Shown: positions 1 to 17,981, counted from the first letter of the stretch. The stretch is DNA of 38,675 nt from an archaeon (GCA_035289485.1 DATDXA010000032.1:1-38675); one strand, 5' to 3'. The notes: generated by a model not told the origin, from the letters alone. Made by a program: numbers and translations.

Positions 1-870
1 CCCGCCGGCGGCCTCGCTTGGCAGCAGCTTGGCAATTGGGGAGGTTATATAGCCAACCGTAGTGTCCATCCAGACCGTGCCATTCACTGCGGTTACAAGC
101 ACGGAAAAAAGCAAAAATACGATTGCAAAATTAATCCCAACACTCCTGATTTTTTCCCAGCTCTCCTTGCGAAACCACATGAGCGCAGTTGTGAAAATAG
201 CCCATCCTCCCAAAATGAGCGGTATCACAATGAAGCCTCCCCAGCTCCAGCCCATGAATGTGAAGAAAATGGCAGCGAGTACGGAATTGATGGCCGTGTC
301 CCGGTTGAAGTTGCCGCCCTTGACGGCCTTAACGAAGAAATAAAATCCGAATACAAGCCACATGAACCCTATTGCATCTTCCTCATACCAGCCCGCCATG
401 GTCCTGTAAGCAAAAGCAGGCATTGCCGCTGCTAGGACGGCAATTGATGCGCCGAATCTCTTGTTGTACATTTCTTTTCCGAGAAAATATAGGCCGACAC
501 AGGTGATTGCACCGAACAATGCAGGCATGATCTTGATTGCGACTATCCATGCATCCTTGCTGAAAGGCGCATTTAGTGTGAAAAGCTTGAAAAGTAACAC
601 CGTGAAAATCCAGAAAAATGCGATGCCACGTGGTATGGCTGCGCCGCCTTCGCTTGCGAGTTGGTAATATGCCCCTGGATCTACTTGGGGAATTGAAAGG
701 GTCGTTGCGACATATTCTCCAATCCTTGCATGGAAATAAGAGTCAAATTCAAACATCAGGTCATAAACCATTAGTTGGCCCCTTATGCCAAAAGCCAGCA
801 TGAAAAGAAGCAGGACGAAAAAAATCTCTTTTTTGTGGCTTAAAACAAAGGGCTTAATCCGCTCAATCAT
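1..870 (-). CDS. aglB: Oligosaccharyltransferase AglB/STT3, N-terminal transmembrane part (partial; continues beyond the left edge)
   Basis: Not in the ORF track. Manual translation from ATG at 870 stays open to position 1: MIERIKPFVLSHKKEIFFVLLLFMLAFGIRGQLMVYDLMFEFDSYFHARI...MPALFGA...AFAYRTMAGWYEEDAIG...MGWSWGGF. It has STT3 hallmarks EFD(P/S)YFH, R(S/T)xAGxY-acidic-x-acidic and SWGG(Y/F), plus multiple TM helices. The WWDYG motif would lie outside the window. Confidence 0.88.
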   Translation of the reverse strand, partial: MIERIKPFVLSHKKEIFFVLLLFMLAFGIRGQLMVYDLMFEFDSYFHARIGEYVATTLSIPQVDPGAYYQLASEGGAAIPRGIAFFWIFTVLLFKLFTLNAPFSKDAWIVAIKIMPALFGAITCVGLYFLGKEMYNKRFGASIAVLAAAMPAFAYRTMAGWYEEDAIGFMWLVFGFYFFVKAVKGGNFNRDTAINSVLAAIFFTFMGWSWGGFIVIPLILGGWAIFTTALMWFRKESWEKIRSVGINFAIVFLLFSVLVTAVNGTVWMDTTVGYITSPIAKLLPSEAAGG

Positions 871-980: not shown

Positions 981-997
981 ACCAATAAGCTTTAATT
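981..997 (+). promoter_or_regulatory. Putative BRE-TATA promoter of the Alg14-like gene
   Basis: ACCAATAAGC-TTTAATT about 23 nt upstream of ATG 1020. The same ACCAAW..-TWWA architecture recurs at 2892, 4668, 11180, 25797(-) and 31700. Confidence 0.6.
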
Positions 998-1019
998 GCG
1001 GCGGAGCCGATTTGGTTGT

Positions 1020-1472
1020 ATGCGCCCAAAAATATGCCTCGCCTGCTCTGCTGGGGGGCATCTTTCGGAAATGCGCCAGCTTTCGGGATTTTATTCGGGG
1101 CACGGGCATTTTTTCATAACTTTCAGGCGTGCGGACACCGAGAGCCTTGCGGAGAAGGAAAGGGTTTTCTTCACAGAGCTGCCCGCACGAAACCCGATTG
1201 CAACGGCGAGAAGCTTTCTGCAATGCATTGAAATACTCAGGCGTGAAAAGCCGGACATTGTTGTCTCCACGGGCGCGGATGTCGGGCTCGTGGCATGCAT
1301 CGCTGGCAAAATTCTTGGGAAGAAAATAATTTTCATTGAAAGCTTTTGCAGGCCCCTAAGGCCCGGGATAAGCGGCAGGATTGCGTATTTGTTCTCGGAC
1401 CTGTTCATATACCAATGGAAAGAGCTTGCGAAGTTTTACCCGAAAGGCATTTTTGGCGGCAGCATTTTTTAG
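1020..1472 (+). CDS. Alg14/PssD/Cps14F-like glycosyltransferase acceptor-binding subunit
   Basis: KICLACSAGGHL, RREKPDIVVSTGA, IFIESF..R, S(L/I)SGR and YQW motifs; about 150 aa. The start was moved to ATG 1020. Confidence 0.9.
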   Translation: MRPKICLACSAGGHLSEMRQLSGFYSGHGHFFITFRRADTESLAEKERVFFTELPARNPIATARSFLQCIEILRREKPDIVVSTGADVGLVACIAGKILGKKIIFIESFCRPLRPGISGRIAYLFSDLFIYQWKELAKFYPKGIFGGSIF

Positions 1473-1486
1473 GGGCGAATGGCAAA

Positions 1487-1999
1487 ATGAAAGAACATGC
1501 GAAAATGCAGGGGAAAGAATCCATATTTGTCTCCGTTGGGACTCACCCGCAGCAGTTCGACAGGCTTTTGCGCGGGATTGACGCCCTTGCGGAAAATGGA
1601 AAAATAAACGGGGAAATCTTTGCCCAAACAGGCTACAGTGAATACTCCCCAAAAAACTACAAATTCAAAAAATTCCTCTCACTTGAGGAGTTCGGCGAAA
1701 AGCTTGCGCGCTGCAGCATCTTCATCACCCATGCAGGCGAAGGCAACATAGGGCAGGCAAAAAACCTCGGAAAAAAATTCATCGCAGTGCCGCGCAGCAG
1801 GGAATTTGGCGAGCACACAAATAATCACCAGCTCGAGCTTGCGCAGGTGGTGGAGATAAAAAAGCTCGGGCTAGTGGCATGGGACATGGATGAACTCGCC
1901 AAAAAACTTTCTGAAATAGGAAAATTTGCCCCGGCAAAAGTTGCAAGTGGAAGAATTCCGCAAATTCTTGATGATTTCATCAGGAAGGAATTTTCATGA
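1487..1999 (+). CDS. Alg13/PssE/Cps14G-like glycosyltransferase catalytic (GT28 C-terminal-like) subunit
   Basis: IFVSVGTHPQQFDRL, AQTGYS, ITHAGEG, VPR...GEHTNNHQLE motifs. The start is ATG 1487 or 1505; the ORF-track extension overlaps the previous gene. Confidence 0.9.
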   Translation: MKEHAKMQGKESIFVSVGTHPQQFDRLLRGIDALAENGKINGEIFAQTGYSEYSPKNYKFKKFLSLEEFGEKLARCSIFITHAGEGNIGQAKNLGKKFIAVPRSREFGEHTNNHQLELAQVVEIKKLGLVAWDMDELAKKLSEIGKFAPAKVASGRIPQILDDFIRKEFS

Positions 2000-2871
2000 C
2001 TGGAATTTCCATAGTGGTTGCGACCTACAATAACAGGAAAACGCTTGAAAAAACACTTGGCTCCCTGCTTGCCCAGAAATTCTATGGAAAATTCGAGGTG
2101 ATTGTGGTCAATGACGGCAGCACGGACGGCACAGCGCAATTCCTTGAGTCGTATAAAAAAGGCAAAAAAAATCTTACAGTAATCCACCAGGAAAATCTCG
2201 GCGTGTGCAGGGCGAGGAACATGGGAATTGCGGCGGCAAAATTCAGGATTGTTATCAATATGGACCATGACTGCATTGCGCACAAACACTGGCTTTTGCA
2301 AATGGCACGCGGTTTTGACGGGCCGCTCGTCGGAGTTGTGAGCGCATACGATTATTATGGCGGGACATCCACTGGCTTTCGGAAAGAGCTGCTTGAAAAA
2401 GTCTCCGGCTATGATGAGGAATACAGGTATTACCGCGAGGACACGGACCTCTCATTCAAAATCATGGACCTTGGGTATAAATTCAGGCTAGTGAAGGCAG
2501 GATATGCACACGACCATACGCAGGCAAAGCCGCGTGGCCTTTTTTCCCTGGCAAGGCACGTGATTCAGAGGCTTTATTATCACCAAAATGATGTGCTGCT
2601 TTACAAAAAGCACCCGACCAAAGTGTGCGAGAAGTTCCTGCACATCAAATTTGGATTTATTGTGGACCCGATGCAGGATTTCAGGGTGGCAACCGGCCTT
2701 TGGAAGGAAGGCGGGAGAATGGAGCTTAGCAGCCCACGCGGGATAACTTTTCTCGAAAACAAAACCCCAATGCACACACTTGCAATAATCATAATTGGCA
2801 TCGGATATGTCATTGCCGTGAAAACAAGTAGGCTCATCGGAAGCCTGAGGTTTGGAAAACTGCTCGTGTAA
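1996..2871 (+). CDS. Glycosyltransferase family 2
   Basis: ISIVVATYN, VVNDGSTD, ARNMG, DHD and GYDE..REDTDL motifs; C-terminal hydrophobic segment; ATGA overlap with the upstream gene. Confidence 0.9.
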   Translation: MTGISIVVATYNNRKTLEKTLGSLLAQKFYGKFEVIVVNDGSTDGTAQFLESYKKGKKNLTVIHQENLGVCRARNMGIAAAKFRIVINMDHDCIAHKHWLLQMARGFDGPLVGVVSAYDYYGGTSTGFRKELLEKVSGYDEEYRYYREDTDLSFKIMDLGYKFRLVKAGYAHDHTQAKPRGLFSLARHVIQRLYYHQNDVLLYKKHPTKVCEKFLHIKFGFIVDPMQDFRVATGLWKEGGRMELSSPRGITFLENKTPMHTLAIIIIGIGYVIAVKTSRLIGSLRFGKLLV

Positions 2872-2934: not shown

Positions 2935-3930
2935 ATGGATATGGACAGGACACTTGTAACCGGGGGATGCGGCTTTATAGGCAGCAACTTTGTGCGCATG
3001 CTTCTTGCGAAAGCCGATATCGAGGTCGTGAACCTTGATTTGCTCACATATGCGGGAAACAAAAATAACCTAAAAGGCGTTGACGGCGCAAAAAATTACA
3101 GCTTTATAAAAGGCGACATCGCGGACAAAAAAACCGTGAAGAAGGCACTTGACGGGGTCGACACCGTGTTCAATTTCGCGGCGGAGAGCCATGTGGACAA
3201 TTCGATAAAGGATGCGGGCGCGTTCGTGCACACCAACGTGGAGGGCACAAGAAACATTGCCCAATGCGCAATGGATGTCGGCGTGAAAAGGCTCGTGCAG
3301 ATAGGGACGGATGAGGTTTATGGCTCGGTTGAAGAGGGCTCCTCAAAGGAAACCGACAGGCTTGAGCCGCGAAACCCATACTCCGCATGCAAGGCCGCAA
3401 GCGATTTGCTCGCGCTCAGCTTCAACACAACGTTCGGCTTTGATGTTGTTGTGACGAGAAGCTCTAACAATTACGGCCCTTACCAGTACCCTGAGAAGGC
3501 CATCCCGCTTTTTATAACAAACCTTATTGAGGGGCAAAAAGTCCCGCTTTATGGGGACGGGAAGAATGTGCGCGACTGGCTCCATGTTGAGGACAATTGC
3601 ACGGGAATTATTACAGCGGCACAAAAGGGAAAGCCCGGAAATATCTACAACATCGGCGGCGGCAATGAGGTGCAGAATGTCGATCTCACACACAAGATTT
3701 TATCGCTGCTTGGAAAGGGGGAGGAAATGATACTCCATGTCGAAGACAGGAAAGGGCATGACAGGAGATATTCGCTTGACTGCTCGAAGATGCGCGCACT
3801 TGGATGGGAGCCGCGCAAAAAATTCGGTGTGGGCCTGCGGGAAACCGTTGATTGGTATGCAAAGAACGAGTGGTGGTGGAAGCCGCTTAAAAAGAAGCAG
3901 GCGATGCAGGCAAAGGGGGGGAAAAAATGA
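2935..3930 (+). CDS. rmlB: dTDP-glucose 4,6-dehydratase
   Basis: GGCGFIG, DLLTYAGN, AAESHVD, TDEVYG, YSACK, NNYGPYQYPEK, RDWLHVED and DRKGHDRRY motifs. Confidence 0.96.
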   Translation: MDMDRTLVTGGCGFIGSNFVRMLLAKADIEVVNLDLLTYAGNKNNLKGVDGAKNYSFIKGDIADKKTVKKALDGVDTVFNFAAESHVDNSIKDAGAFVHTNVEGTRNIAQCAMDVGVKRLVQIGTDEVYGSVEEGSSKETDRLEPRNPYSACKAASDLLALSFNTTFGFDVVVTRSSNNYGPYQYPEKAIPLFITNLIEGQKVPLYGDGKNVRDWLHVEDNCTGIITAAQKGKPGNIYNIGGGNEVQNVDLTHKILSLLGKGEEMILHVEDRKGHDRRYSLDCSKMRALGWEPRKKFGVGLRETVDWYAKNEWWWKPLKKKQAMQAKGGKK

Positions 3931-4652
3931 AGGGCATAATTCTGGCTGGCGGATTTGGGACAAGGTTGCGCCCGCTTACGTTAGTTCTCAACAAACATCT
4001 TCTTCCGGTTTACAACAAGCCGATGATTTACTACCCTATTGAAACATTGAAGAAGGCTGGGATAAAGGAGATTTTGGTTATTACAGGAACCGAGCATGCA
4101 GGAGCCCTATTTGCACTGCTCGGCTCTGGCAAGGACTTTGGCGTGAACTTCACTTTCAGGGTGCAGGATGAGGCCGGAGGGTTGCCGCAGGCTATCGGGC
4201 TTGCGCGGGGGTTTGTGAGCAATGACAAGTTCGTTTCAATCAATGGCGATAACATCCTCTTTGATGACATAGGCCAGTTCGTGAAGGAATTCGGGAATGG
4301 CACGGAAAAATCAAGGATTCTGATTTACGAAACCACAACCGAAGAAGCGAGCAAGGCAGGAGTTGCAGTGCTTGAAGGCGACAAGGTTGTCAAGGTTGTG
4401 GAAAAGCCCAAGGATCCGCCAACGAATTGGGTTGCGGTTGGAGTGTACATGTATACTCCGGAAGTTTTTGATGTGATTAAAACTCTAAAGCCCTCAGCGC
4501 GCGGAGAACTTGAGATATCAGACCTGCACAACTACTACATAAAAAAGGGTTCACTGAAAGCGAGCAAGCTCCAAAAAAAATGGCTTGATGCGGGCTCGTT
4601 TGATGAGCTGCTGCGAGCAAACAGGATTGTCGGGGAAAAGGGAAGAAAATAA
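3927..4652 (+). CDS. rmlA: Glucose-1-phosphate thymidylyltransferase (short form)
   Basis: GIILAGGFGTRLRPLT, KHLLPVYNKPMIYYP, EKP, SARGELEI and WLDAG motifs; ATGA overlap with rmlB. Confidence 0.93.
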   Translation: MKGIILAGGFGTRLRPLTLVLNKHLLPVYNKPMIYYPIETLKKAGIKEILVITGTEHAGALFALLGSGKDFGVNFTFRVQDEAGGLPQAIGLARGFVSNDKFVSINGDNILFDDIGQFVKEFGNGTEKSRILIYETTTEEASKAGVAVLEGDKVVKVVEKPKDPPTNWVAVGVYMYTPEVFDVIKTLKPSARGELEISDLHNYYIKKGSLKASKLQKKWLDAGSFDELLRANRIVGEKGRK

Positions 4653-4773: not shown

Positions 4774-6360
4774 ATGAAAATCCTCATGCTAAGCCCGCCG
4801 TTCCTCTACAGGTTCTCAAGAACAAGCAGAAGCCCTGCCATTTCAAAGGGCGGATGTGTTTACTACCCCATATGGATGGGCTATGCCACGGGAGTTCTTG
4901 AGCAGGCAGGCCATGATGTGAAACTTATTGATGCACCGGCGAACGGAATGACGCAGGATGAGATAGTAAAGCTCGTGAGCGAGTGGAAACCAGAACTGAT
5001 GGTACTTGACAGCGTGACAGCATCTTTCAAGAATGATGTGAAGGTCCTTGATGCGCTCAAGGCGGCAAACCCCGATTCATTTGCAATCATGGTTGGGACG
5101 CACGTAGGCGCGCTTCCGGAAGAGTCAATAAGAGCAAGCGAAAAAATCGATGCTGTTGCGCGCGGAGAATATGATTATATTTTACGGGACCTTGCGGACG
5201 CGCTTGAAAATAGCAAGCCGCTTAGCACTGTAATGGGCCTTACTTACCGCGACAATGGCAAAATAATGTTCACGCCGAATATGCCTCCGCTTGAAACGCC
5301 AGAACTGGATGCGATGCCATTTGCAAGCAAGGTTTACAAAAAGCATCTGCGCATAAACGATTATTTTTACCCCTCAGTTCTCTTTCCGGAAGTCACAATA
5401 ATCACCGGAAGAGGCTGCAAATTCAGGTGCACGTTCTGCAAGTTCCCGCAAACTCTTACGGGCCATAGCTACAGGGCGCGCTCGCCGAAAAATGTTGTTG
5501 ATGAGTTCGAGTGGATTTCAAAAAACCTCCCGGAAGTCAAGGACATCATGATTGAAGATGACACTCTCACGCAGGACAAGGAGAGAATGATTGAGATTGC
5601 AAAAGAAGTCATTGCCCGCGGCCTTAATGTCACATGGACATGCAACGCAAGGGCGGATGTTGATTTGGAGACCATGCAGTGGATGAAAAAGGCGGGCTGC
5701 AGGCTTTTGTGTGTCGGCTTTGAAAGCTCGAATCAGGAAATACTAAACAACATCAAGAAGGGAACTCGCATCGATAAGATTGAGCAGTTCATGAAGGACA
5801 CCAAGAAGGCACAAATCCTCGTGCACGGCTGCTTCATGCTCGGAAACAGGGGCGAGACAAAGCAAACAATAAGAGACACTGTTGAGTGGGCAAAAAAACT
5901 AGACCCCGACACCGCGCAGTTTTTCCCGCTGATGCTCTATCCCGGAACGGAAGCGTACAGGTGGGCATCGGAAAATAATTTTTTGGCAACGCACAACTGG
6001 GATGAGTGGCTAACTCCTGAAGGCACGCACAACACGATTCTCAATACCGATAAGCTTAGCGCAAAAGAGCTTGTTGCGGGATGCGACTGGGCAAGAAAGG
6101 AATTTTACATGAGGCCTTCTTACATCGCAGGAAGGGTCAAGATTGCGCTCACGCAGCCAAGGGAAGCGCGGCGCCTTTTGATGGGCGGAAGGACTTTTTT
6201 GAAATACATTTTGGATATAGAATTCTGGAAGAAGAGCGCGGCAATGAGGCAGGTTAAGGATGAGAAGAATGCCGTGGTTGCGGAATCCGTTGGAAAAGAG
6301 CAAGAGCAGCAGGCAGAAGTTGAAGTTGCGCGCAAGCCAATATTTAAAATCACGCAGTGA
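4774..6360 (+). CDS. Cobalamin-binding radical SAM protein, HpnJ/calditol-synthase-like
   Basis: N-terminal B12-binding-type domain (YYPIW...LIDAP...VGTHV...PEE...RGEYD), CxxxCxxC (GRGCKFRCTFC), PQT..GH.YR.RS, EDDT, WTCNAR, VGFES, NIKKG, HG.F.LG..GET and YPGT. The pattern matches HpnJ as I recall it. Upstream TTTATATA (4729-4736) and GGTGA RBS (4762-4766). Confidence 0.9.
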   Translation: MKILMLSPPFLYRFSRTSRSPAISKGGCVYYPIWMGYATGVLEQAGHDVKLIDAPANGMTQDEIVKLVSEWKPELMVLDSVTASFKNDVKVLDALKAANPDSFAIMVGTHVGALPEESIRASEKIDAVARGEYDYILRDLADALENSKPLSTVMGLTYRDNGKIMFTPNMPPLETPELDAMPFASKVYKKHLRINDYFYPSVLFPEVTIITGRGCKFRCTFCKFPQTLTGHSYRARSPKNVVDEFEWISKNLPEVKDIMIEDDTLTQDKERMIEIAKEVIARGLNVTWTCNARADVDLETMQWMKKAGCRLLCVGFESSNQEILNNIKKGTRIDKIEQFMKDTKKAQILVHGCFMLGNRGETKQTIRDTVEWAKKLDPDTAQFFPLMLYPGTEAYRWASENNFLATHNWDEWLTPEGTHNTILNTDKLSAKELVAGCDWARKEFYMRPSYIAGRVKIALTQPREARRLLMGGRTFLKYILDIEFWKKSAAMRQVKDEKNAVVAESVGKEQEQQAEVEVARKPIFKITQ

Positions 6361-6391
6361 CTATTTGCATCCGGTTTAGGGCTTGATTTTT

Positions 6392-6964
6392 ATGGACAGG
6401 GTAGAGTTCGCTTTGGAGAACCTTGGCGGGAAAATACTTGATGTCGGCTACAGCGTTGGCGGCATCCACCAAAAATTCATTGAAAAGTTCGGCGCGGAAA
6501 ACATTTACGGCGTTGACATTGAAACACGCGAGAACAGCGGGCACTACAAAAGGGCATCGGCCGAGCGCATCCCATTTGACAGCGGCTTTTTTGATTCGAT
6601 TTTTGCAGGGGAGCTAATTGAGCATGTGTACACCCCTGAAATTTTTCTTCGCGAGGCAAACCGCGTGCTCAAAATCGGCGGCGCTCTTGTAATGACAACC
6701 CCAAACCAGAAGAGCATCATAAACCGCATTTTCAGGTCATACCAGACGAAAATACATGTGAGCCTCTTTGATGAGGAGTCGCTTAAGAAAATGCTTGCGC
6801 AAACCGGATTTGCTGTTGAAAAATTTTACTGCCAGCCATATAGCGGCGAGAACTGCTATGGCAGCAGGAACAAGTGGTCATTTGAGGCGAGGGCATTTTT
6901 GCACAAGGTGCTGCCCCGAAGCCTACAGGAACAGATGATAGTGAAGGCTGTGAAAGTGAACTGA
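6392..6964 (+). CDS. Class I SAM-dependent methyltransferase (Methyltransf_11-like)
   Basis: ILDVG, YGVDI, SAERIPF..FD, ELIEHV, RVLK.GG.L...TPN. Start ATG 6392 or TTG 6383. Confidence 0.85.
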   Translation: MDRVEFALENLGGKILDVGYSVGGIHQKFIEKFGAENIYGVDIETRENSGHYKRASAERIPFDSGFFDSIFAGELIEHVYTPEIFLREANRVLKIGGALVMTTPNQKSIINRIFRSYQTKIHVSLFDEESLKKMLAQTGFAVEKFYCQPYSGENCYGSRNKWSFEARAFLHKVLPRSLQEQMIVKAVKVN

Positions 6965-7957
6965 ATGCCTAAAGCGGTTTTAGAAGCGAGCGTCATAATA
7001 CCGGCCTACAACAGCGCATCAACTATTGGTGATTGCATTAAAGCGCTTGCGGAGCAGGATTTTGCGCGAAGGGATTTTGAAATAATTGTTGTAGATGACG
7101 GCTCGAAGGACGGCACTGGCAAGATCTCAAGGGCAGCAGGGGCGAAGGTGATTTCACAGGACAATGCGGGGCCTGCGAAGGCAAGAAACCGTGGCGCGAA
7201 AAGCGCGAGTGGAGAAATACTCGTGTTCACGGACGCGGACTGCGTGCCGCAAAAAAACTGGCTGCGGGAAATGCTTGAGCCATTCAAAAGCATGGAAATT
7301 GCAGGGGTTCAGGGAGCTTACAAAACTAGGCAGAAGTCTCTTACTGCAAGATTTGGGCAGATTGAAATCGAGGAGAGATATGAGAGAATGAAAAAGCGTG
7401 CGCAAAGCCTTGATTGGATTGGAAGCTACTCGGCAGCATACAGGAAAAAAGATTTTTTTGAAGCAGGAGGGTTTGATGAATCCTTCCCCAAGGCATCTGG
7501 CGAGGACCCGGAGCTTAGCTACAAAATGCAGAAAAGCGGCAAGAAACTTGTTTTCAACCAGGATGCGATTGTCTACCACACACATCCTGATACGATGTGG
7601 AAATACCTGCGCACTAAATATTACCGCGCGTTCTACAGGGTAAACCTTTATTCAAAGCACAAGGACAAGATTGCCAGCGATTCATACACGCCGGGAGATT
7701 TGAAACTGCAGGTGTTCATGGCATTTGCCGGAACCGGCGCATTCATTGCAGGATTTGCATTTAGCCAGCCGGTGCTGCTTGCGGCTTCGCTTGCACTTGG
7801 AGTTGTGGGCTTTTTGAGCACATACAGGCTCACGCTCTTTGCATTGAAAAAAGATTTCTGGGCCGGGCTTTTTTCAATTCCTCTAATCCAGCTCAGAAAC
7901 TCGGCATTCATGCTCGGCCTGATTGCGGGCTTTGTGAAACACAAGGTGCTGAAATGA
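6965..7957 (+). CDS. Glycosyltransferase family 2 with C-terminal membrane segments
   Basis: SVIIPAYN, VVDDGSKD, GPAKARNRG, FTDADC and GGFDE..GED motifs; two to three C-terminal TM helices. Confidence 0.92.
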   Translation: MPKAVLEASVIIPAYNSASTIGDCIKALAEQDFARRDFEIIVVDDGSKDGTGKISRAAGAKVISQDNAGPAKARNRGAKSASGEILVFTDADCVPQKNWLREMLEPFKSMEIAGVQGAYKTRQKSLTARFGQIEIEERYERMKKRAQSLDWIGSYSAAYRKKDFFEAGGFDESFPKASGEDPELSYKMQKSGKKLVFNQDAIVYHTHPDTMWKYLRTKYYRAFYRVNLYSKHKDKIASDSYTPGDLKLQVFMAFAGTGAFIAGFAFSQPVLLAASLALGVVGFLSTYRLTLFALKKDFWAGLFSIPLIQLRNSAFMLGLIAGFVKHKVLK

Positions 7958-9030
7958 AAATCGTGCAGGTCGCAAACCACTACGCCCCGTGCATTGGCGG
8001 GATTGAGAGGGTTGTGCAAGACATCAGCATTGGACTCGCCGGCAAGGGGCACGAGGTGCGCGTTGTGTGCCTTGACAGGTGCGCAAATTCAAAAGAAAAA
8101 CTTCCAGAAATGGAAAATATTGGCGGCATAGGGGTTGAGAGGGTCCCTTTCCTCGACCTCAAATATTACAAAGTGGCACCATCGGTTTTTTCAAGGATTG
8201 GGGATGCAGAGGTAGTGCACGTGCATGGAATCGGATTCCTTTCGGATTTTCTTATAATTACAAAGCCGCTGCACAAAAAGAAGGTGGTTGTTTCCACCCA
8301 TGGCGGGATATTCCACACCAAAGCCATTGGCATGCTCAAGTCGGTTTATTTCAGGGTGGTGCAGGGCATTGTGCTGAATTTTGCGGATGCCGTAATAGCG
8401 GTGAGCAAAAATGATTATGAATTGTTTTCCAAAATATGCGGCAAAACCGCGCTAATTGAAAACGGCATTGACCTTTCTGGCATTTCTGCGGCCCAAAAGA
8501 GGCGCAACACTTTTCTTTTTGTGGGGCGCTTTTCCAGGAATAAGCGCGTCGAGAACATGCTTGAAGCGTTCTCAAGGCTGCAGAACAGAAAATTTGAACT
8601 GCTGATTGCGGGGGTTGATTGGGAAAATCTCCTCGAATCATACAAGGAAAAAGTGAAGGCACTTGGCATTGAAAAGAATGTGCGCTTCGTGATTGGCCCC
8701 TCAAAAGATGAGCTCAGGGCACTTTATGCAGGCTCCGAATTTTTCGTCTCCGCATCGCGCTATGAGGGATTTGGGCTTGCGCTCGTTGAGGGAATGGCAC
8801 ACGGGTGCATACCGATTGTGCAGGGCAATGAGGGATTTTCGGCAATACTGCGCAAAGGAGAGGGCTTTTTTGTCGATTTCGATGAAAGCGGCCCTGCAGC
8901 GGAGAAGATAGGGCAGATATTGGGAAAAAACAGGGAATCAATAGGGAAAGCCGCCGCAAAAAGGGCAAAAGATTTTGACATGGGAAAAAATGCATCGTCC
9001 CTTGAAAAGGCGTATGGGGCGATAAAATGA
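7954..9030 (+). CDS. Glycosyltransferase family 4, GumH/AceA-like (alpha-mannosyltransferase-like)
   Basis: GGIE, VVHVHGI.F..D.L..TKPLH.K..VSTHGG.FHT, IENG.D, GR.S.NK, SRYEGFGLALVEGM (E-x7-E). This closely resembles Xanthomonas GumH as I recall it. Confidence 0.88.
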   Translation: MKIVQVANHYAPCIGGIERVVQDISIGLAGKGHEVRVVCLDRCANSKEKLPEMENIGGIGVERVPFLDLKYYKVAPSVFSRIGDAEVVHVHGIGFLSDFLIITKPLHKKKVVVSTHGGIFHTKAIGMLKSVYFRVVQGIVLNFADAVIAVSKNDYELFSKICGKTALIENGIDLSGISAAQKRRNTFLFVGRFSRNKRVENMLEAFSRLQNRKFELLIAGVDWENLLESYKEKVKALGIEKNVRFVIGPSKDELRALYAGSEFFVSASRYEGFGLALVEGMAHGCIPIVQGNEGFSAILRKGEGFFVDFDESGPAAEKIGQILGKNRESIGKAAAKRAKDFDMGKNASSLEKAYGAIK

Positions 9031-10070
9031 ACGTGCTGCTGCTCACATCCACAGCCGATACACGGGTGAAAGCCGGCGTGGAAACATACAATCAGTACTT
9101 GAAAAAAATATTTCCCGGGCTCGAAATCATCGGCTATGAAACAGTAAGGCCAAGCGCATTCGAATGGTTCTCCCCGCTAAAGGAACCGCTAAAGGCCAAT
9201 GCCATCGGCTCTTATGTGAAGGAAAACATCGGCAAACTAAGGCCGGGCCTTGTAATAACCAACGGGATGTACGGCTGGAGCCTCACAGAAAGGGATACGA
9301 ACTGCCCAATAGTCAACATCTCCCACGGGGGATTCGTTGGCCTCGCGCTCAATGCCATAAGGAAAACAACCCTTGAGTTTTACAGGACAATGATTGTTTA
9401 TTCTTTTTTCGAAAAACTCAGCGCGAAAAATGCCTCGGTAGTTGTGGCCAATTCGCATCTGACTATGGAGCTGAACAAAAAATATTACGGTGTGGGCTCA
9501 ACAGTCATACACAACCCTGTCGACACAAAAACCTTTGCGCCAACAGGCAAGAAAAAAGCGAGGAAAAAACTTGGCCTCCCGGAGGGAAAAAAAATCGGCC
9601 TGTTTGTGGGAAGGCAGGAATACCAGAAAGGATTTGACCTGTTCGAAAAAATTGCGCGGATGAGGCCGGAAATATGCTTTATTTCAATCACATTCCCAAA
9701 AACGAGGAGCGGCATGATAAACATAACTGGGGCTTTGGCAAAGAATCGCAAAGAGCTCGCACTGTACTATTCTGCCGCCGATTTTGTGCTATTCCCCTCA
9801 AGGTTTGAGGGTTTTGGCTTTGTGCCAATAGAAGCGTTATCGTGCAATACTCCAGTTATTTCATCCGATGTTGGCGTGGTCAAGGAATTAAGCATTGACG
9901 GGCTCGAAAAAGTGCCCTCACTATATATTGAGGATTGGCTTATGGCGATTGACAGGGTTATTTCAAAAAAAAGAAAAGTGGCCCCCTCGGAGGCTATTGG
10001 AAAAAGATTTGGTTTTGGGGCATTCAGGGACGAATTTTTGGCTTTAACTAGCCGCCTTGCCAAGAATTAA
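9027..10070 (+). CDS. Glycosyltransferase family 4
   Basis: NPVD..F, FVGR...QKG, YSAAD, PSRFEGFGFVPIEALSCNTPVI. Confidence 0.92.
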   Translation: MNVLLLTSTADTRVKAGVETYNQYLKKIFPGLEIIGYETVRPSAFEWFSPLKEPLKANAIGSYVKENIGKLRPGLVITNGMYGWSLTERDTNCPIVNISHGGFVGLALNAIRKTTLEFYRTMIVYSFFEKLSAKNASVVVANSHLTMELNKKYYGVGSTVIHNPVDTKTFAPTGKKKARKKLGLPEGKKIGLFVGRQEYQKGFDLFEKIARMRPEICFISITFPKTRSGMINITGALAKNRKELALYYSAADFVLFPSRFEGFGFVPIEALSCNTPVISSDVGVVKELSIDGLEKVPSLYIEDWLMAIDRVISKKRKVAPSEAIGKRFGFGAFRDEFLALTSRLAKN

Positions 10071-10113: not shown

Positions 10114-11076
10114 ATGAAAAAAATCCTTATAACCGGAGTAACAGGCTTTGCAGGATCCCACCTTGCCGAGTACATAATAGACAACAAGCTTGGTGAAATA
10201 CACGGAACTTTCAGGGGCAAGAGCACCGACCTTGCCAACATCAATCATGTGAAAAGCAGCCTCAATCTTGTGAAGTGTGACATCACGGATTATTTCGTCG
10301 TTAAGCAGACCATAAAGGATATCGACCCGGATTATATTTTCCATCTTGCGGCCCAGTCTTTTGTCCCTGAATCGTGGAAATCGCCAAGGGAAACGCTCGA
10401 AACTAACATCATGGGCGCGTTGAACATTTATGAGGCGGTAAGGGAAGTAAACCCTGGAATAAAAATCCAGATAGCCTCAAGCAGTGAAATTTATGGGATG
10501 GTGCCAGAAGACGAATTGCCAATAAAAGAGACAAACCAGCTAAGGCCGCTTAGCCCTTACGGGGTCAGCAAGGTCGCGATGGACCTTCTTGGCTATCAGT
10601 ACCACGAGAGTTATGGGCTAAATATTGTAAGGACCCGCGCGTTCAACCACACAGGCCCGAGAAGGGGAGATGTCTTTGTTGCCTCAAACTGGACAAAGCA
10701 GGTTGCCGAAATAGAAAAAGGCACGCAAGAGCCTGTTCTTATGGTTGGCTCGCTCACTTCGAAAAGGGATTTCACAGATGTTCGGGATGTTGTGAGGGCT
10801 TACTGGCTGTCACTTGAAAAATGCGAACCCGGGGAAGCATACAACATCTGCTCTGGAAAAACCCAGACAATGCAGGAGCTGCTTGACATGATTCTCTCGT
10901 TCACGGACAAAAAAATCCAGGTAAAAGTTGACCCAAAAAGGATGAGGCCCTCGGATGTGAAGGTGCTACTTGGGGATTACAGCAAATTCAACAAGCAGAC
11001 AGGCTGGAAACCGGAAATACCGCTCGAAAAAACGATTAAGGATTTGCTGGATTACTGGAGAAAAAAACTGGCATGA
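10114..11076 (+). CDS. GDP-sugar 4,6-dehydratase/reductase family SDR (Gmd/Rmd/DmhA-like)
   Basis: GVTGFAG, HLAAQSFV, SSSEIYG, SPYGVSK (YxxxK), NHTGPRRGDVF, RDFTDVRD and RPSD motifs. Confidence 0.88.
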   Translation: MKKILITGVTGFAGSHLAEYIIDNKLGEIHGTFRGKSTDLANINHVKSSLNLVKCDITDYFVVKQTIKDIDPDYIFHLAAQSFVPESWKSPRETLETNIMGALNIYEAVREVNPGIKIQIASSSEIYGMVPEDELPIKETNQLRPLSPYGVSKVAMDLLGYQYHESYGLNIVRTRAFNHTGPRRGDVFVASNWTKQVAEIEKGTQEPVLMVGSLTSKRDFTDVRDVVRAYWLSLEKCEPGEAYNICSGKTQTMQELLDMILSFTDKKIQVKVDPKRMRPSDVKVLLGDYSKFNKQTGWKPEIPLEKTIKDLLDYWRKKLA

Positions 11077-11166
11077 GAACCGCCAGACACCTTGCATGGA
11101 AGCGCACAACAGGAAACATCGGTGGCGAAGGAATTTGGCATGTTCAGCCAAAAAAGCAAAATCCGA

Positions 11167-11196
11167 TTGACACGCGCATACCAAAGACTATAAAAA
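11167..11196 (+). promoter_or_regulatory. Putative promoter of the heptose module (BRE-TATA overlapping a sigma70-like TTGACA-N16-TATAAA)
   Basis: TTGACA 11167-11172 and TATAAA 11189-11194; also ACCAAAGAC-TATAAAAA 11180-11196. Confidence 0.5.
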
Positions 11197-11358
11197 CTTG
11201 AGAAAGCCCCTAATAATACAAGGAGCTTCTGACACTTTCGGCTGGCAAGTCCATTCGGGCTTTATGGCCTCAAATTGCCAAATCAGGGCAGAATCCCGTT
11301 GCCAAAAAGGCGGCAACCGAAATTGTCGAAAAGCCCATTTACACAATTGAGGAACATC

Positions 11359-12366
11359 ATGATTGTTGCAAGAGCCCCTCTCCGGTTGCCATTGGGAGGA
11401 GGCGGAACCGATCTCCCGGCGTATTATACCCGCTATGGCGGCCATTGGCTCTCGGCCGGCATTAATCGCCATATGTACATCGTTTTGCACGGCCGCTCCA
11501 TTGAGCCCGCCATCAAGCTCAAGTACTCTAAAATCGAGGAAACAAATTCGGTTGATAAAATTGAGCACGGCATCTTTAGGAGCGCATTAAAGCGCTATGG
11601 CATAAAGGACCACTTAGAACTCACATCCATCGCAGATGTGGGGGCGGGAACCGGGCTTGGGAGCTCTGGAAGCTTTACAGTGGCGCTACTCGCGGCCCTG
11701 CACGCATACCAGTCCAAGGAATGCAGCCCATCTTCACTTGCAGAAGAGGCATTTGAAATAGAAATGAGTGATCTCAATTTGCCGGTCGGAAAGCAGGACC
11801 AATATGCCGCCGCATTCGGGGGCATTCGCTCATATACCGCAGGCAAGGATGGAAAAATTGAGGCCAAAGATCTCGGGCTTGATGGCGAAACCGTGCTCGG
11901 GCTTGAGTCGAACTTGCTGCTTTTCTTCACGAATTACACGAGATCATCAATCCAAGTGCTTGACCAGCAGGGGAAAAAAATTGCGGCGAACCAGGACAAG
12001 GCGGCGGATGCGATGCACCAAATTAAGGAAATCGGAAAAAGAACACAAAATGCCCTTGAGAGGGGCGATATAGACCAATTGGGGCCGCTCTTGGATGAAC
12101 ATTGGAAACTCAAACGCGGAATTTCTGACAAAATGTCCAATGATTCGATTGACAAATGGTACTCACTCGCGCTCAAAAATGGAGCAACCGGCGGAAAAAT
12201 TGTGGGTGCTGGCGGAGGGGGATTCTTCATGTTCTACTGCCCGAGTGGCCCAAAAAACCAGGAAAAACTCCGCTCTGCGCTGGCTAATGCGGGCCTTAGC
12301 GAGATGCGGTACAAATTCGATTTTTCAGGCGCCACTACATTGCTTAATTTGGAGGGAGATGAATGA
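11359..12366 (+). CDS. hddA: D-glycero-alpha-D-manno-heptose-7-phosphate kinase (GHMP family)
   Basis: ARAPLR...GGGTD, GTGLGSSG, GKQDQY and GAGGGGF motifs. True start ATG 11359, preceded by GAGGA. Confidence 0.9.
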   Translation: MIVARAPLRLPLGGGGTDLPAYYTRYGGHWLSAGINRHMYIVLHGRSIEPAIKLKYSKIEETNSVDKIEHGIFRSALKRYGIKDHLELTSIADVGAGTGLGSSGSFTVALLAALHAYQSKECSPSSLAEEAFEIEMSDLNLPVGKQDQYAAAFGGIRSYTAGKDGKIEAKDLGLDGETVLGLESNLLLFFTNYTRSSIQVLDQQGKKIAANQDKAADAMHQIKEIGKRTQNALERGDIDQLGPLLDEHWKLKRGISDKMSNDSIDKWYSLALKNGATGGKIVGAGGGGFFMFYCPSGPKNQEKLRSALANAGLSEMRYKFDFSGATTLLNLEGDE

Positions 12367-12983
12367 GCCGAAATGAAATATTCGTCAAAAAGTATCTCTC
12401 GGAAGCACAGGACATAATCTCGCGACTGCCCGTGAAAAAAATTGACCTGGCAATTGACATGCTCTTTGAGGCATATCAGGATAACAAGCAGGTTTTCTTC
12501 ATGGGCAATGGAGGAAGCGCCTCGAACGCCCAGCACTTTGCCGCGGACCTTTCGAAAACCACCATCATGAAAACCGGCGAGTCGGTTTTAACTGCGAAGC
12601 GCTTCAAAGCGCACTCGCTATGCGACAATCCGGCATTGATTAGCGCATGGGCAAATGACATGGGGTTTGAAAGCGTCTTCCGCGGGCAGCTTGAAAATGT
12701 CCTGCAGGCTGGCGATGTTGTCATCGGCATTAGCGTTCATGGCGGCGGCAAGTTTTCCTCGAACCTTGGCGAAGCATACAAGTATGCAAAATCCGTCGGG
12801 GCCAAAACAATTGGATTTTCAGGGTTTGACGGCGGGTCAATGAACCAGCTCTGTGATGTGAACATCATCGTTCCTGCCAATAGCACACCGCACACGGAAT
12901 CGCTCCATTCAGTGCTGCAGCACATGATCATCTTTTGCCTGAAGGAAAAAATTGCCAATAATGGGGAGGCAAAATCCAAATGA
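12363..12983 (+). CDS. gmhA: Sedoheptulose-7-phosphate isomerase (SIS domain)
   Basis: GNGGSASNAQHFAADL, AWAND.GF..VF..QL, GDV.IGIS, GFDGG and E..H....H motifs. Confidence 0.92.
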   Translation: MSRNEIFVKKYLSEAQDIISRLPVKKIDLAIDMLFEAYQDNKQVFFMGNGGSASNAQHFAADLSKTTIMKTGESVLTAKRFKAHSLCDNPALISAWANDMGFESVFRGQLENVLQAGDVVIGISVHGGGKFSSNLGEAYKYAKSVGAKTIGFSGFDGGSMNQLCDVNIIVPANSTPHTESLHSVLQHMIIFCLKEKIANNGEAKSK

Positions 12984-13600
12984 AAAAAAACAAGTCCAAA
13001 ACCGTCTTTTTGGACAGGGACGGGGTTGTGAATGAAATGGTGATTCACAAGGAGCAGGGCCTTATTGACACCCCATTTTCCGCAGAACAGATGCGGTTCA
13101 TTACAGGACTAGAGGAACCGCTGCGGCGTATGGCCGCCTTGGGTTACAGCCTGATTATTATTTCAAACCAGCCCGGGCTTGCAAAGCGGCAATACAGCCA
13201 GCAAACATTTGATGCGCTGGACCAGAAACTGCGGGATTTTTTCAGGCAAAATGGCATACCCCTGCTGGACGTATTCTATGCGCTTTCGCACCCTGATGCC
13301 AATGACCCAGAATACCGGAAAAATCTGCACCTGCGAAAACCAGAACCGGGAATGCTGATTGAGGCGGCCAAGAAACACAACATTGAGCTTTCCAAATCAT
13401 TCATGGTCGGAGACAGCTGGCTGGATGTGGCGGCAGGAAACGCGGCAGGATGCTGCACAGTCCTGATTGCGGACAGGTATAAAAGCGAACTTGCAAAGCT
13501 ACTTGCGGAAAAAAAAGTGAAGCCGGATTATTATGCCAAAAACATGGCGGAGGTGTTGGAGATAATTGAAAAACACGCAAAAGGAGAGGATAAGCCTTGA
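12980..13600 (+). CDS. gmhB: D-glycero-D-manno-heptose-1,7-bisphosphate phosphatase (HAD-IIIA)
   Basis: FLDRDGVVN, ISNQPG, RKPEPGML and SFMVGD...D..AG motifs. Confidence 0.92.
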   Translation: MKKNKSKTVFLDRDGVVNEMVIHKEQGLIDTPFSAEQMRFITGLEEPLRRMAALGYSLIIISNQPGLAKRQYSQQTFDALDQKLRDFFRQNGIPLLDVFYALSHPDANDPEYRKNLHLRKPEPGMLIEAAKKHNIELSKSFMVGDSWLDVAAGNAAGCCTVLIADRYKSELAKLLAEKKVKPDYYAKNMAEVLEIIEKHAKGEDKP

Positions 13601-14190
13601 GAAACCCTATCATCTCGTTTTTTCAGAACCGGACATACAAAACAGACGACATCAGCGCAAAGCACCACATCGCGGAATTGATAGCCAAGCTGGCACGCGC
13701 CCATAACGCGAAGATTATTGTTGAGACCGGGACATTTCGCGGCTTAACGACTCTTGAGCTGGCGAAGGAAAATCCGCAGGCGACCATTTACACTTTCGAA
13801 ATCGACCCGAAAATACTCAGGCAGACACGGATTCTTTTCGGCATTTCAGGACACCGAAACATTGTTTTGGTTGAAGGGGATGTGATGAAAACACTTCCGC
13901 AAACAATTGCCGGAAAATCGGTCGATTTCGCTTTTTTGGATGACGCCAAGAAGAATTATAGGATGAATTTTGAGAATCTTCTCCCGCATCTCTCAGACAG
14001 CGCATTGGTGTGCGCGCATGACACGAATTTTCGCCCAAATGACATTGATGATGCTATTCAATTCGGAAAGTACCTCGCAAACCACCCGGCATTCAGTGCA
14101 ATCTCGGTGGACTGGAGCGATCGTGGACTCACGATAGCCCAGAAGCGCGGCTCTGCCCGCATTGAAAAAAAGCCCACAGGAGGGATATGA
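13597..14190 (+). CDS. O-methyltransferase (class I, CCoAOMT/Methyltransf_24-like)
   Basis: IVETGTFRG.TT, TFEID, EGD, DFAFLDDAKKNY and AHD motifs; TTG start overlapping the gmhB stop (TTGA), preceded by AGGAGAGG. Confidence 0.82.
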   Translation: MRNPIISFFQNRTYKTDDISAKHHIAELIAKLARAHNAKIIVETGTFRGLTTLELAKENPQATIYTFEIDPKILRQTRILFGISGHRNIVLVEGDVMKTLPQTIAGKSVDFAFLDDAKKNYRMNFENLLPHLSDSALVCAHDTNFRPNDIDDAIQFGKYLANHPAFSAISVDWSDRGLTIAQKRGSARIEKKPTGGI

Positions 14191-14844
14191 ATGGAAATTT
14201 TTGCCGATACGGCGAATCTGGATGAGATACGGGAACTGCAGAGCTGGGGCGTAATTGACGGATGCACGACCAACCCAAAAATCGTCGCCAAGGAGGGCGC
14301 AGATTTCGAAAAACGCATGAAGGAGATACTAAAGCTTGTTCCGGGCCCTGTGAGCATTGAGGTCACGTCAAATGACCTGAATCCTATGTTGGCGGAAGCG
14401 AAGAAATTCGCGGCATGGAAAACAAATGCGGTCATCAAGGTGCCAATGACAACTAACGGCCTTAAGGCGGTGCAGGAACTCAAAAAACTTGGAATTAAGA
14501 CAAATGTCACGGCATGCATGAGCGTGCCGCAGCTCGTGCTTGCGGCCAAGTCAGGCGCAACTTATGCGAGTTTTTTCTACTCGCGGGTTGGTGATATAGG
14601 TGTGAACCCCAAGGAGGTCCTGTCCAAGGCGGTTGCAATATACAATCAGCATGCATTCACAACAAAAATCATAGTAGGCAGCATCCGCTCAGTTGACCAG
14701 ATCACGGATATCATGGAAACTGGCGCGCATGTGATAACGATTCCGCCGGAATTCTTCAAAAAAATGGCCCAGCACCCCAAAACCGACGAGACAATCGATG
14801 AATTCCTCAAATTCTGGGCCGAGTACAGGAAAAAAACGGCGTAG
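14191..14844 (+). CDS. tal: Transaldolase (TalC/MipB-type, about 220 aa)
   Basis: FADTAN, G.TTNP, SIEV (Glu retained), VIKVP (Schiff-base Lys), NVT, YASFFYSR (Phe, Arg), GSIR and HPKTD motifs. Confidence 0.9.
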   Translation: MEIFADTANLDEIRELQSWGVIDGCTTNPKIVAKEGADFEKRMKEILKLVPGPVSIEVTSNDLNPMLAEAKKFAAWKTNAVIKVPMTTNGLKAVQELKKLGIKTNVTACMSVPQLVLAAKSGATYASFFYSRVGDIGVNPKEVLSKAVAIYNQHAFTTKIIVGSIRSVDQITDIMETGAHVITIPPEFFKKMAQHPKTDETIDEFLKFWAEYRKKTA

Positions 14845-17249: not shown

Positions 17250-17981
17250 ATGCAATGCGTTATTTTCTGCGGCGGATTTGCAAGCAGGCTCTATCCTGTT
17301 ACGCACAAAATCCCCAAATCCATGCTTACAGTAAATGGAAAACCATTTCTTGAAATCCAGCTGAAAATGCTGAAAAAAAACGGCGTTGGCCAAGTGATTT
17401 TGCTCACAGGTTTTCTCCAGGAGCAAATTGAATCTTATTTTGGGGATGGGAAAAAATTCGGGGTCAGGCTGGAATATGTCAAAGGCAGCCAGAATTTTGG
17501 CACAGGGTTTGCCCTAAAACGCGCGGCCCCATTTGTAGAGGACGAATTTTTGACATTGTGGGGGGATAGCTACCTTGAAATGAACTATAAAAAATTTTTC
17601 ACGGAATTTGTGGAACGGCCATGCCTTGGCATGATGAGCGTCTACGAAAACCACGACCGCATTGACAAGAGCAACATCGAAATCGGCAACGGGCTTGTGA
17701 AAACCTATGACATGAACGCCCGCCAAAACCAAATTCGATACGCCTACATTGATTACGGGTGCCACGCATTCAGAAAAAAAACCCTTGACATGATACCAAA
17801 CGACCACGCCTACAAACACGGCCAGTTATTCCAGGCATTGATAGCCCAAAAGCAAATGGCGGCATATGTGGTAAAACAAAGGCCATATGAAATTGGCTCC
17901 TTTTCCGGGCTTGAAGAGCTGCAAAAAAAATTGGCCGATGAAAAAAAAATAAAAGCCCCATCAGATGAGAGGCATTTTTAA
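17250..17981 (+). CDS. hddC: Sugar-1-phosphate nucleotidyltransferase, probable heptose-1-phosphate guanylyltransferase
   Basis: GGFASRL...PKSM..VNGKPFL, YFGDG..FG, GTG.AL, WGDSY and EIGS motifs; located in the hddA-gmhA-gmhB operon. Confidence 0.78.
   Translation: MQCVIFCGGFASRLYPVTHKIPKSMLTVNGKPFLEIQLKMLKKNGVGQVILLTGFLQEQIESYFGDGKKFGVRLEYVKGSQNFGTGFALKRAAPFVEDEFLTLWGDSYLEMNYKKFFTEFVERPCLGMMSVYENHDRIDKSNIEIGNGLVKTYDMNARQNQIRYAYIDYGCHAFRKKTLDMIPNDHAYKHGQLFQALIAQKQMAAYVVKQRPYEIGSFSGLEELQKKLADEKKIKAPSDERHF

Follow-up and report, generated by a model that had tools for sequence, protein, structure and literature searches.

Sugars are the substrates of several radical S-adenosylmethionine (SAM) enzymes, among them the methylase MoeK5, which acts on a sugar in a lipid-linked glycan. 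In the available excerpts of two papers, the hopanoid protein HpnJ and the calditol synthase Cds are both described as acting on lipid-bound sugars (PMC13459092, PMC9092360), and the available part of a third one relates that Fom3 uses a CMP-linked substrate and that MoeK5 modifies a sugar (PMC9204698). Here, we analyze the gene for an HpnJ-like radical SAM protein with a B12-type domain that is located in a 38,675-nucleotide stretch of archaeal DNA (GCA_035289485.1, DATDXA010000032.1:1-38675; this entire stretch is referred to as the window), together with the genes that accompany it. The protein is conserved and uncharacterized, a variation on the HpnJ type that occurs in a new context. Its gene stands among glycan genes, followed by genes for a class I SAM-dependent methyltransferase (MT_a) and a membrane glycosyltransferase of family 2 (GT2_TM), and it probably represents a glycan-pathway relative of HpnJ that serves as the sugar-tailoring partner of this glycosyltransferase.

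A sequence-only reading of the window had proposed this layout of three open reading frames (ORFs), radical SAM protein, methyltransferase and GT2, for positions 4774-7957, and our analysis bears out both its coordinates and its domains. Near-core in a genome-reduced DPANN phylum, the radical SAM gene adjoins an oligosaccharyltransferase gene and is inherited together with that of a dedicated glycosyltransferase. The source of the window is an archaeon of the Iainarchaeota (DPANN), whose 90%-complete assembly amounts to 1.16 Mb, spread over 64 contigs; close homologues of the radical SAM protein (54-90% identity) are labeled archaeon, Candidatus Diapherotrites or Candidatus Iainarchaeum. This genome contains a single HpnJ-like gene, a single protein with a B12-binding domain and three Radical_SAM matches. 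It uses corrinoids, since it encodes a class II (adenosylcobalamin-type) ribonucleotide reductase; a BtuF-type binding protein was not found in it. A search of the 90%-complete genome for a squalene-hopene cyclase gave no SQHop_cyclase_C match, and hopanoids should thus not be the substrate.

Family membership and predicted fold of the radical SAM protein

The likeness to HpnJ that had been noticed in the initial reading is confirmed by our analysis because the ORFs, the motifs, the domains and the family match all check out. Every one of the motif strings named for it (YPIW, IDAP, VGTHVGALPEES, PFASKVYKKHLRINDYFY and TGRGCKFRCTFCKFPQTLTGHSYRARSP, as well as WTCNA, NIKKGTRID and HGCFMLG) is present in the translation, and the CxxxCxxC cluster motif, formed by C215, C219 and C222, is invariant in 37 aligned sequences. 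Pfam assigns residues 28-140 to the B12-binding domain PF02310 (E 2.5e-14; 53.6 bits vs. a cut-off of 32.1) and residues 209-373 to the Radical_SAM domain PF04055 (E 2.5e-21). The cluster motif, the B12-type N-terminal domain and the predicted fold place the protein into class B of the radical SAM enzymes, and the use of cobalamin is predicted.

Within NCBIfam, HpnJ (TIGR03471) is the top family with 435.2 bits (E 3.2e-130), and the alignment runs from end to end, with residues 1-479 of the protein matched to positions 1-467 of a profile that is 472 positions long. The runners-up are BchE (178.6 bits), PhpK (129.1 bits) and the ladderane radical SAM family (122.1 bits), followed by ApyD (108 bits), HpnR (105.8 bits), AprD4 (79.6 bits) and KedN5 (65 bits). 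The protein consequently follows HpnJ over the curated methylase families PhpK and HpnR, as the sequence-only reading had it; its scores place it outside the BchE family (TIGR02026; cut-off 481.35 bits) and the AprD4 family (NF033070; cut-off 500 bits) alike. With annotated HpnJ proteins of hpnI-J-K clusters, it shares 37-39% identity over 91% of its length. Judged by these comparisons, its likeness to HpnJ is specific and far beyond chance.

Our homologue scan of 1.84 billion cluster representatives returned 46,482 relatives at E <= 0.001, of which 5,404 remained at E <= 1e-30. We sorted 92 of the 150 listed representatives, picked as near full length, by NCBIfam. HpnJ was the best family, yet with a score under its cut-off (241-471 bits), in 79 of these 92 proteins, BchE was best in six, and four had no family at E <= 1e-70. 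The HpnJ cut-off was passed by three of the 92, with scores of 740-818 bits, the range of true HpnJ representatives. True HpnJ is therefore a small fraction of a large and uncharacterized HpnJ-like family. As to genomes included as controls, Thermotoga maritima was the sole one of 14 to match the HpnJ model at E <= 1e-50 and therefore carries an HpnJ-like protein.

We built phylogenetic trees with quick IQ-TREE runs on 75 rows, with support from the Shimodaira-Hasegawa-type approximate likelihood-ratio test (SH-aLRT), and repeated them on 35 rows under LG+G4; Cds, Fom3, MoeK5 and PtmC were left out of both. In the 75-row tree, nine Iainarchaeota proteins form one clade (support 100) that is nested in a 39-row clade (99), which also takes in bacterial relatives and fusion proteins. 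Four true HpnJ rows and one other row form a separate clade (97) within a weakly supported group of 11 rows (88), and the 11-row and 39-row groups join at a support of 89. The 35-row tree agrees, with 17 rows at 99 and HpnJ at 100. Clustering with methylating subfamilies far from HpnJ was thus not observed; the clade of the window protein adjoins that of HpnJ in trees calculated without Fom3 and MoeK5. Placed by its sequence, the radical SAM protein is a neighbor of HpnJ outside of HpnJ proper, a member of a sister clade that occurs in glycan loci. Conservation in 37 columns extends over the Iainarchaeota clade, the wider clade around it and true HpnJ. The designation HpnJ-like therefore stands with regard to the best-matching family and the adjacent position in the tree, but it does not extend to an equivalog, given the missed family cut-off, the separate clade and the hopene cyclase that was not found.

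Our AlphaFold2 model of the protein, which is based on a 37-sequence alignment, has a mean predicted local distance difference test score (pLDDT) of 89.9, with residues ~490-528 forming a disordered tail of low confidence. When this model was compared with the PDB by Foldseek, AprD4 (6fd2) came first (E 1.8e-24; template modeling (TM) score of 0.80 on the target; ~490 aligned columns), followed by TsrM, CysS, OxsB, MgmA and TokK, with matches covering 460-585 columns. AprD4 was also the best match in a sequence search of the PDB (E 1.8e-16). Its top rank is explained in part by the fact that no HpnJ structure exists. The predicted fold is that of the B12-type class, and it does not settle the chemistry.

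Several orthologues are split by an intein with a LAGLIDADG domain, namely two in the genus of the window (G092:C13 and G137:C9) and those of loci L035 and L038. The intein site lies just past the CxxxCxxC region, and matches break at ~224/221 within open frames of 1036-1048 amino acids (aa). The copy present in the window is intein-free.

Partner genes and the surrounding glycan array

GT2_TM (Table 1) possesses a C-terminal stretch of ~85 residues that are hydrophobic as judged by eye. Its NCBIfam matches are weak and include carotenoid and polyprenyl-phosphate glycosyltransferases, HpnI was not among the 25 families shown of 28 in the scan of the window proteins, and a comparison with PDB sequences gave generic GT2 matches only. 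Synteny was assessed in 40 related loci, against which 39 window proteins were run by tblastn, with hits accepted from 50% query coverage and at E <= 1e-10. Distances were counted in those archaeal loci whose sequence extends for 3 kb or more on the side in question, 26 for the downstream and 26 for the upstream side. Downstream of the radical SAM gene and no farther than 3 kb away, GT2_TM is found in 24 of 26 loci, the glycosyltransferase GT4a in 21 and MT_a in 10, while the RmlA-like gene (21/26), RmlB (13/26) and MT_a (6/26) are found within 3 kb upstream. GT2a lies upstream in 11 of 26 loci, and AglB homologues are located 5-8 kb upstream in several of the relatives' loci. The recurrent core thus comprises a divergently oriented AglB gene, the Alg14/Alg13-like pair, GT2a, RmlB, the RmlA-like gene, the radical SAM gene, MT_a, GT2_TM and GT4a.

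We then recorded the distribution of these genes in 151 genomes of the phylum; these are related genomes, and the counts are descriptive, with no statistical test attached. The radical SAM gene is present in 101 of the 151 genomes and in 46 of the 55 high-quality ones, and GT2_TM is present in 97. Both genes occur together in 95 genomes, the radical SAM gene alone in six, the GT2 gene alone in two, and neither in 48. In the six genomes with the radical SAM gene alone, one match is a paralogue of 31% identity and two lie at contig ends. Radical SAM and GT2_TM genes are missing from the same families (f5, 0/15; f26, 0/6; f7, 7/26). MT_a is found in 54 of the 151 genomes, and 53 of these 54 carry the radical SAM gene. 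GT2_TM is hence the most constant partner of the radical SAM gene, and MT_a is an optional one, nested in the distribution of the radical SAM gene.

A scan of 16 unusually long radical SAM relatives adds gene fusions to this picture. One protein has a C-terminal GT2 (P0127), three have a C-terminal class I methyltransferase (P0128, P0174, P0179), and one has an N-terminal GT4 (P0158). Five contain an intein and/or a LAGLIDADG domain (P0131, P0136, P0148, P0175, P0059), one is fused to DUF6895 (P0259), one has a second radical SAM stretch (P0180), and no extra domain was recognized in the remaining four (P0185, P0057, P0189, P0197). The fusions mark radical SAM protein, GT2 and methyltransferase as a real functional module. 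Synteny, co-occurrence and fusions collectively identify the downstream GT2 and methyltransferase, to which the sequence-only reading had drawn attention, as real partners.

The same reading had also recognized functional analogues of HpnK and HpnL in the window. The protein taken as the counterpart of HpnL (LPG_synthase_TM, 31746-32717) scores 18.6 bits against an HpnL cut-off of 195.65 and has homologues in 6 of 151 genomes at E <= 1e-25. The idea of an hpn-like four-gene system in the window was rejected, as the HpnK and HpnL analogues (3/151 and 6/151 genomes) do not travel with the radical SAM gene.

Table 1. Features of the window around the radical SAM gene (+ and -, strand)
Feature	Position	Strand	Remarks
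STT3/AglB oligosaccharyltransferase, N-terminal part	1..870	-	divergent, cut by window edge; PF02516 E 2e-15
Split Alg14/Alg13-like glycosyltransferase pair	996..1999	+	two overlapping ORFs; synteny in relatives
PssD/Cps14F-like half	996-1472	+	NF041549 132.8 bits, cut-off 110
PssE/Cps14G-like half	1346-1999	+	NF041548 120.2 bits, cut-off 120; match from residue 60
GT2 glycosyltransferase GT2a, conserved core	1996..2871	+	Pfam, synteny
dTDP-glucose 4,6-dehydratase RmlB	2935..3930	+	TIGR01181 428.6 bits, cut-off 365.1
RmlA-like sugar-1-phosphate nucleotidyltransferase	3927..4652	+	directly upstream of radical SAM gene; TIGR01208 235 bits, cut-off 320
HpnJ-like class B (B12-domain) radical SAM protein	4774..6360	+	528 aa; Pfam, NCBIfam
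Class I SAM-dependent methyltransferase MT_a	6383..6964	+	193 aa, TTG start, ATG three codons in; Pfam
GT2 glycosyltransferase GT2_TM, hydrophobic C-terminal tail	6965..7957	+	330 aa; Glycos_transf_2 E 7e-34
GT4 glycosyltransferase GT4a	7954..9030	+	4-nt overlap with GT2_TM stop codon
Nucleoside diphosphate (NDP)-heptose branch	10114..14844	+	same co-directional array; heptose matches all under equivalog cut-offs
Second nucleotidyltransferase, HddC-like	17250..17981	+	87 bits, under cut-off

The window is a single long co-directional array of glycan genes, shared by AglB, the Alg13/14-like pair, RmlA/B, a Wzx-like flippase and many glycosyltransferases. Approximately 5 kb downstream of the radical SAM module, it contains heptose genes (11275-13600, and the HddC-like gene of Table 1). 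The NDP-heptose branch comprises genes for a GDP-mannose-dehydratase (GMD)-like short-chain dehydrogenase/reductase (SDR), an HddA-like kinase, a GmhA-like isomerase, a GmhB-like phosphatase, an O-methyltransferase and a transaldolase. Together with the HddC-like gene, it is likely to constitute an NDP-(6-deoxy)heptose pathway, which is unusual in a DPANN archaeon and for which the transaldolase could supply sedoheptulose-7-P. In loci L002, L037, L040 and L042, HddC-like homologues adjoin the radical SAM gene.

Further downstream are genes for two TylC3-type NDP-sugar C-methyltransferases (21303-22532 and 29068-30327; Methyltransf_13 plus Methyltransf_14), RmlD (30324-31190) and an RmlC-like protein (31193-31657). 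Given this gene content, the array probably also makes branched-chain 6-deoxysugars. The RmlC-like gene (minus strand; 154 aa) is an odd pairing, since the same residues match dTDP_sugar_isom (E 6.7e-24) and the membrane domain Polysacc_synt_C (E 5.3e-15). A 723-aa ORF on the minus strand (34899-37070) overlaps the gene for a PglF-like dehydratase on the plus strand (35926-37470); its GT4 domain is confined to the C-terminal 345 residues, and the true GT4 start is probably located near 35933. Genes for a DUF4956 protein and a VTC-domain protein (polyphosphate-polymerase-like) are present at the right edge, outside of the glycan array (37525-38675, minus strand).

The nearest annotated relative of the radical SAM protein is encoded on plasmid 1 of Lawsonia intracellularis (L002), with 46.7% identity vs. 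the 37-39% found for annotated HpnJ. In this locus, the radical SAM gene is flanked by genes for two PpgS-like GT2 proteins, GalE, two DUF2304 proteins, a SIS protein and a class I methyltransferase. The rest of the locus contains a second radical SAM gene, four more methyltransferase genes, a GT2 gene, an HddC/GmhB-like fusion and a GHMP kinase gene, and a DUF2142 gene is present elsewhere on the plasmid. L. intracellularis is a pig pathogen, and the glycan locus, with its five class I methyltransferases, takes up roughly two thirds of the 27-kb plasmid; our literature search found no description of the product of this locus. The methyltransferase adjoining the radical SAM gene was considered as an orthologue of MT_a and rejected, as it has no similarity to it. 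The partnership with methyltransferases is therefore one by class, not by orthology.

In related loci from Parcubacteria, Chloroflexi and Brocadiaceae (42-50% identity), homologues of HddC, GmhB, HddA and GmhA adjoin the radical SAM gene, and GT2 genes and methyltransferase genes are present as well; the association with heptose genes was observed in four of five bacterial loci. Within the phylum to which the Parcubacteria genome belongs, the orthologue occurs only sporadically (2/301 sampled genomes), and the second of these two matches resides on a 4.5-kb contig with no neighbor matching a window protein. One to four extra B12-type radical SAM paralogues, with 25-31% identity to the window protein, are found among glycosyltransferase genes in L039 (Patescibacteria; 8309-16155) and, in Iainarchaeota, in L031-L033 and L028-L029; L039 also carries radical SAM genes of the SPASM type. 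In the Brocadiaceae genome L042, the relative of the radical SAM gene adjoins heptose genes. The available excerpt of a study on the S-layer O-glycan of the anammox bacterium Kuenenia stuttgartiensis mentions an unidentified 174-Da residue, read by its authors as a dimethylated deoxyhexose (PMC5088730); we regard this residue as a lead only.

Proposed chemistry and competing explanations

We infer that the radical SAM protein and the membrane GT2 operate as a unit in the AglB-dependent surface-glycan pathway of Iainarchaeota. With regard to the reaction, an HpnJ-type ring contraction is our leading guess, put forward tentatively and by analogy. It is ranked first because HpnJ is the closest curated family, because the pairing with a GT2 mirrors hpnI-hpnJ, and because the nested methyltransferase fits a new hydroxyl group; the nesting of MT_a is what one would see with a methyl acceptor created by the radical step. 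We also count in its favor that the gene is retained in a reduced 1.16-Mb genome, where it encodes the sole B12-domain protein, and that the closest solved structure, AprD4, is a non-methylating enzyme with a sugar ring as its target. RmlA and RmlB would generate dTDP-(4-keto-)6-deoxyhexose, and GT2_TM would load the dTDP-derived sugar onto a lipid-linked acceptor on the cytoplasmic side of the membrane. Next, the radical SAM enzyme would attack the bound sugar by removing a hydrogen atom from one of its unactivated ring carbons; a C5 radical may then lead, via ring opening and C1-C5 closure, to a cyclopentitol joined to the aglycone by an ether bond. A new hydroxyl group would thereby arise from the former ring oxygen, and MT_a may methylate it; GT4a would extend the glycan, and AglB would finally transfer it to protein.

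A number of observations weigh against this proposal. The protein falls short of the curated TIGR03471 cut-off of 577.6 bits, and an approximately unbiased (AU) test on the 35 rows, for a group that was named only after the first tree had been seen, rejected holding Iainarchaeota and HpnJ together (lnL difference 59.4, p 0.016). No HpnJ-specific catalytic signature was found among the conserved columns since most conserved residues are common to BchE-like outgroups too. The genes of the hpn cluster are likewise poorly mirrored in the window: GT2_TM, which the sequence-only reading had treated as an HpnI analogue, has no specific likeness to annotated HpnI (best BLASTP E 0.019), and the presumed HpnK analogue, a PF01522 deacetylase (33949-34902), is encoded ~27 kb away, with homologues in 3 of the 151 genomes. 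The settings of the bacterial relatives, with NDP-heptose genes, PpgS-like GT2/DUF2304 pairs and GT-C glycosyltransferase genes, point in the same direction: should the bacterial enzymes work on an activated donor, ring contraction would destroy it. Loci rich in methyltransferases and in extra B12-type radical SAM paralogues would suit methylation. We know of no member of the HpnJ family that has been characterized biochemically, and of no assay for any member of the clade to which the window protein belongs. In the available excerpts, the activity of HpnJ itself rests on a knock-out phenotype only (PMC13459092, PMC9092360). Moreover, a review, in its accessible part, reports a similarity network in which HpnJ falls into one cluster with the C-methylases Fom3 and MoeK5 when the threshold is stringent (PMC9204698), and proteins this far apart may thus differ in the type of reaction.

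These last points lead to the first competing explanation, which we consider possible but on the unlikely side, ranked only a little lower than ring contraction: a cobalamin-dependent radical SAM C-methylation of an unactivated carbon, e.g., C6 of a 6-deoxyhexose or a heptose carbon, on an NDP-sugar or a lipid-linked sugar, with subsequent transfer by the partner GT2. Most characterized B12-type radical SAM enzymes are methylases, and the glycosyl donor would stay intact in such a reaction. The radical SAM gene directly follows nucleotide-sugar genes (the RmlA-like gene in 21 of 26 archaeal loci, the heptose set in four of five bacterial ones). The use of corrinoids by the genome, evident from its ribonucleotide reductase, the many methyltransferases and further B12-type paralogues of the loci, and the network position of Fom3 and MoeK5 next to HpnJ fit as well. 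Methylase families, however, score far under HpnJ (PhpK 129, HpnR 106 and KedN5 65 bits vs. 435 bits), and the nearest solved structure is that of AprD4, a non-methylase. In addition, a C-methyl group would provide no new acceptor, so that the restriction of MT_a to carriers of the radical SAM gene would be left unexplained.

A different radical transformation that keeps the pyranose, i.e., an AprD4-like 1,2-diol dehydration with reduction of the ketone by an SDR to give a deoxysugar, or an epimerization, is improbable. AprD4 leads the PDB matches by sequence and fold, and in many loci the radical SAM gene has SDR genes at its side (RmlB/GMD-like genes upstream; an SDR gene directly downstream in L040), much as AprD4 is paired with AprD3, but the first rank of AprD4 owes something to the missing HpnJ structure, its family model gives 79.6 bits against a cut-off of 500, and the N-terminal domain of the window protein clears the Pfam threshold for B12 binding. 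We also hold it to be improbable that ring contraction takes place on a membrane glycolipid, with GT2_TM glycosylating a scavenged archaeal lipid and the radical SAM enzyme forming a calditol-like head group: the lipid-bound substrates described for HpnJ and Cds in the excerpts cited above (PMC13459092, PMC9092360), the hydrophobic tail of GT2_TM and its weak matches to carotenoid and polyprenyl-phosphate glycosyltransferases would suit it, but the module is set between AglB and Alg13/14-like genes on one side and further glycosyltransferases and a Wzx-like flippase on the other, GT4a comes after the GT2 in 21 of 26 loci, an order that points to an oligosaccharide more than to a single head group, and S. 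acidocaldarius has no protein close to HpnJ.

Ring contraction of the HpnJ type, if followed to its end, would convert a bound (6-deoxy)hexose into an ether-linked cyclopentitol within the lipid-linked oligosaccharide. As a result, Iainarchaeota would have N-glycans with a carbocyclic "carbasugar" that resists acid and glycosidases and has an O-methyl cap in about half of the lineages, and bacteria might do likewise with a heptose. We rate this complete scenario as rather unlikely. If true, it would be the first carbasugar in a protein glycan, and HpnJ would be a hopanoid-specialized offshoot of an older glycan-tailoring family of ring-contracting enzymes. Whether the reaction is a ring contraction, a C-methylation or a deoxygenation, these episymbiont-like archaea would display an unusual sugar on the surface that faces their hosts. 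Our literature search found no mention of HpnJ-like proteins or TIGR03471 outside of hopanoids and no paper combining radical SAM, B12-binding, N-glycosylation, DPANN and aglB. It likewise found no link between heptose and cobalamin-dependent radical SAM enzymes in glycans, and none of any B12-type radical SAM enzyme to the synthesis of protein or surface glycans. The compact gene set (RmlA, RmlB, radical SAM protein, methyltransferase, GT2), all of whose products except the GT2 are soluble, makes a direct test of HpnJ-type function possible.

Comparison with described systems

AprD4 (PDB 6fd2) is the best match among solved structures by both sequence and fold, and it acts on a sugar ring without being a methylase. 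It differs from the window protein, with which it shares 19-20% identity, in being the radical SAM 1,2-diol dehydratase of apramycin biosynthesis, where its substrate is an aminoglycoside pseudodisaccharide. AprD4 is not known to use cobalamin. OxsB (PDB 5ul2-5ul4) is a B12-type radical SAM enzyme with a similar fold (Foldseek E 4e-21) and, as far as the available literature excerpts go, the sole one of this type biochemically shown to contract a sugar ring, albeit that of a nucleotide. It is much larger (~730 aa), has extra domains and gave no sequence match to the window protein at E <= 0.001. Fom3 and MoeK5 are methylases, and they are likened to the window protein by the published network around HpnJ, not by a comparison of sequences.

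Calditol synthase Cds (Saci_1489) of Sulfolobus acidocaldarius is, like the window protein, an archaeal radical SAM protein with a bound hexose as its proposed substrate in the excerpts available (PMC13459092, PMC9092360), but it is not described as B12-binding in the accessible parts of the review literature. The label calditol-synthase-like, used in the sequence-only reading, finds no sequence support: the proteome of S. acidocaldarius gave no match to the HpnJ model at E <= 1e-50, whereas the window protein matches it at 7.8e-131. For the proteome as a whole, the best match has an E-value between 1e-50 and 1e-25, so that any relationship of Cds to HpnJ would be a distant one.

HpnJ is embedded in the hopanoid hpnI-J-K setting, whereas the window gene lies amid nucleotide-sugar and N-glycosylation genes and is not accompanied by HpnK; it has a class I methyltransferase partner at its side, which the reference hpn locus lacks. 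Both proteins share the N-terminal B12-type domain, the radical SAM core and the helical C-terminal part, and the genes of both are paired with that of a membrane GT2.

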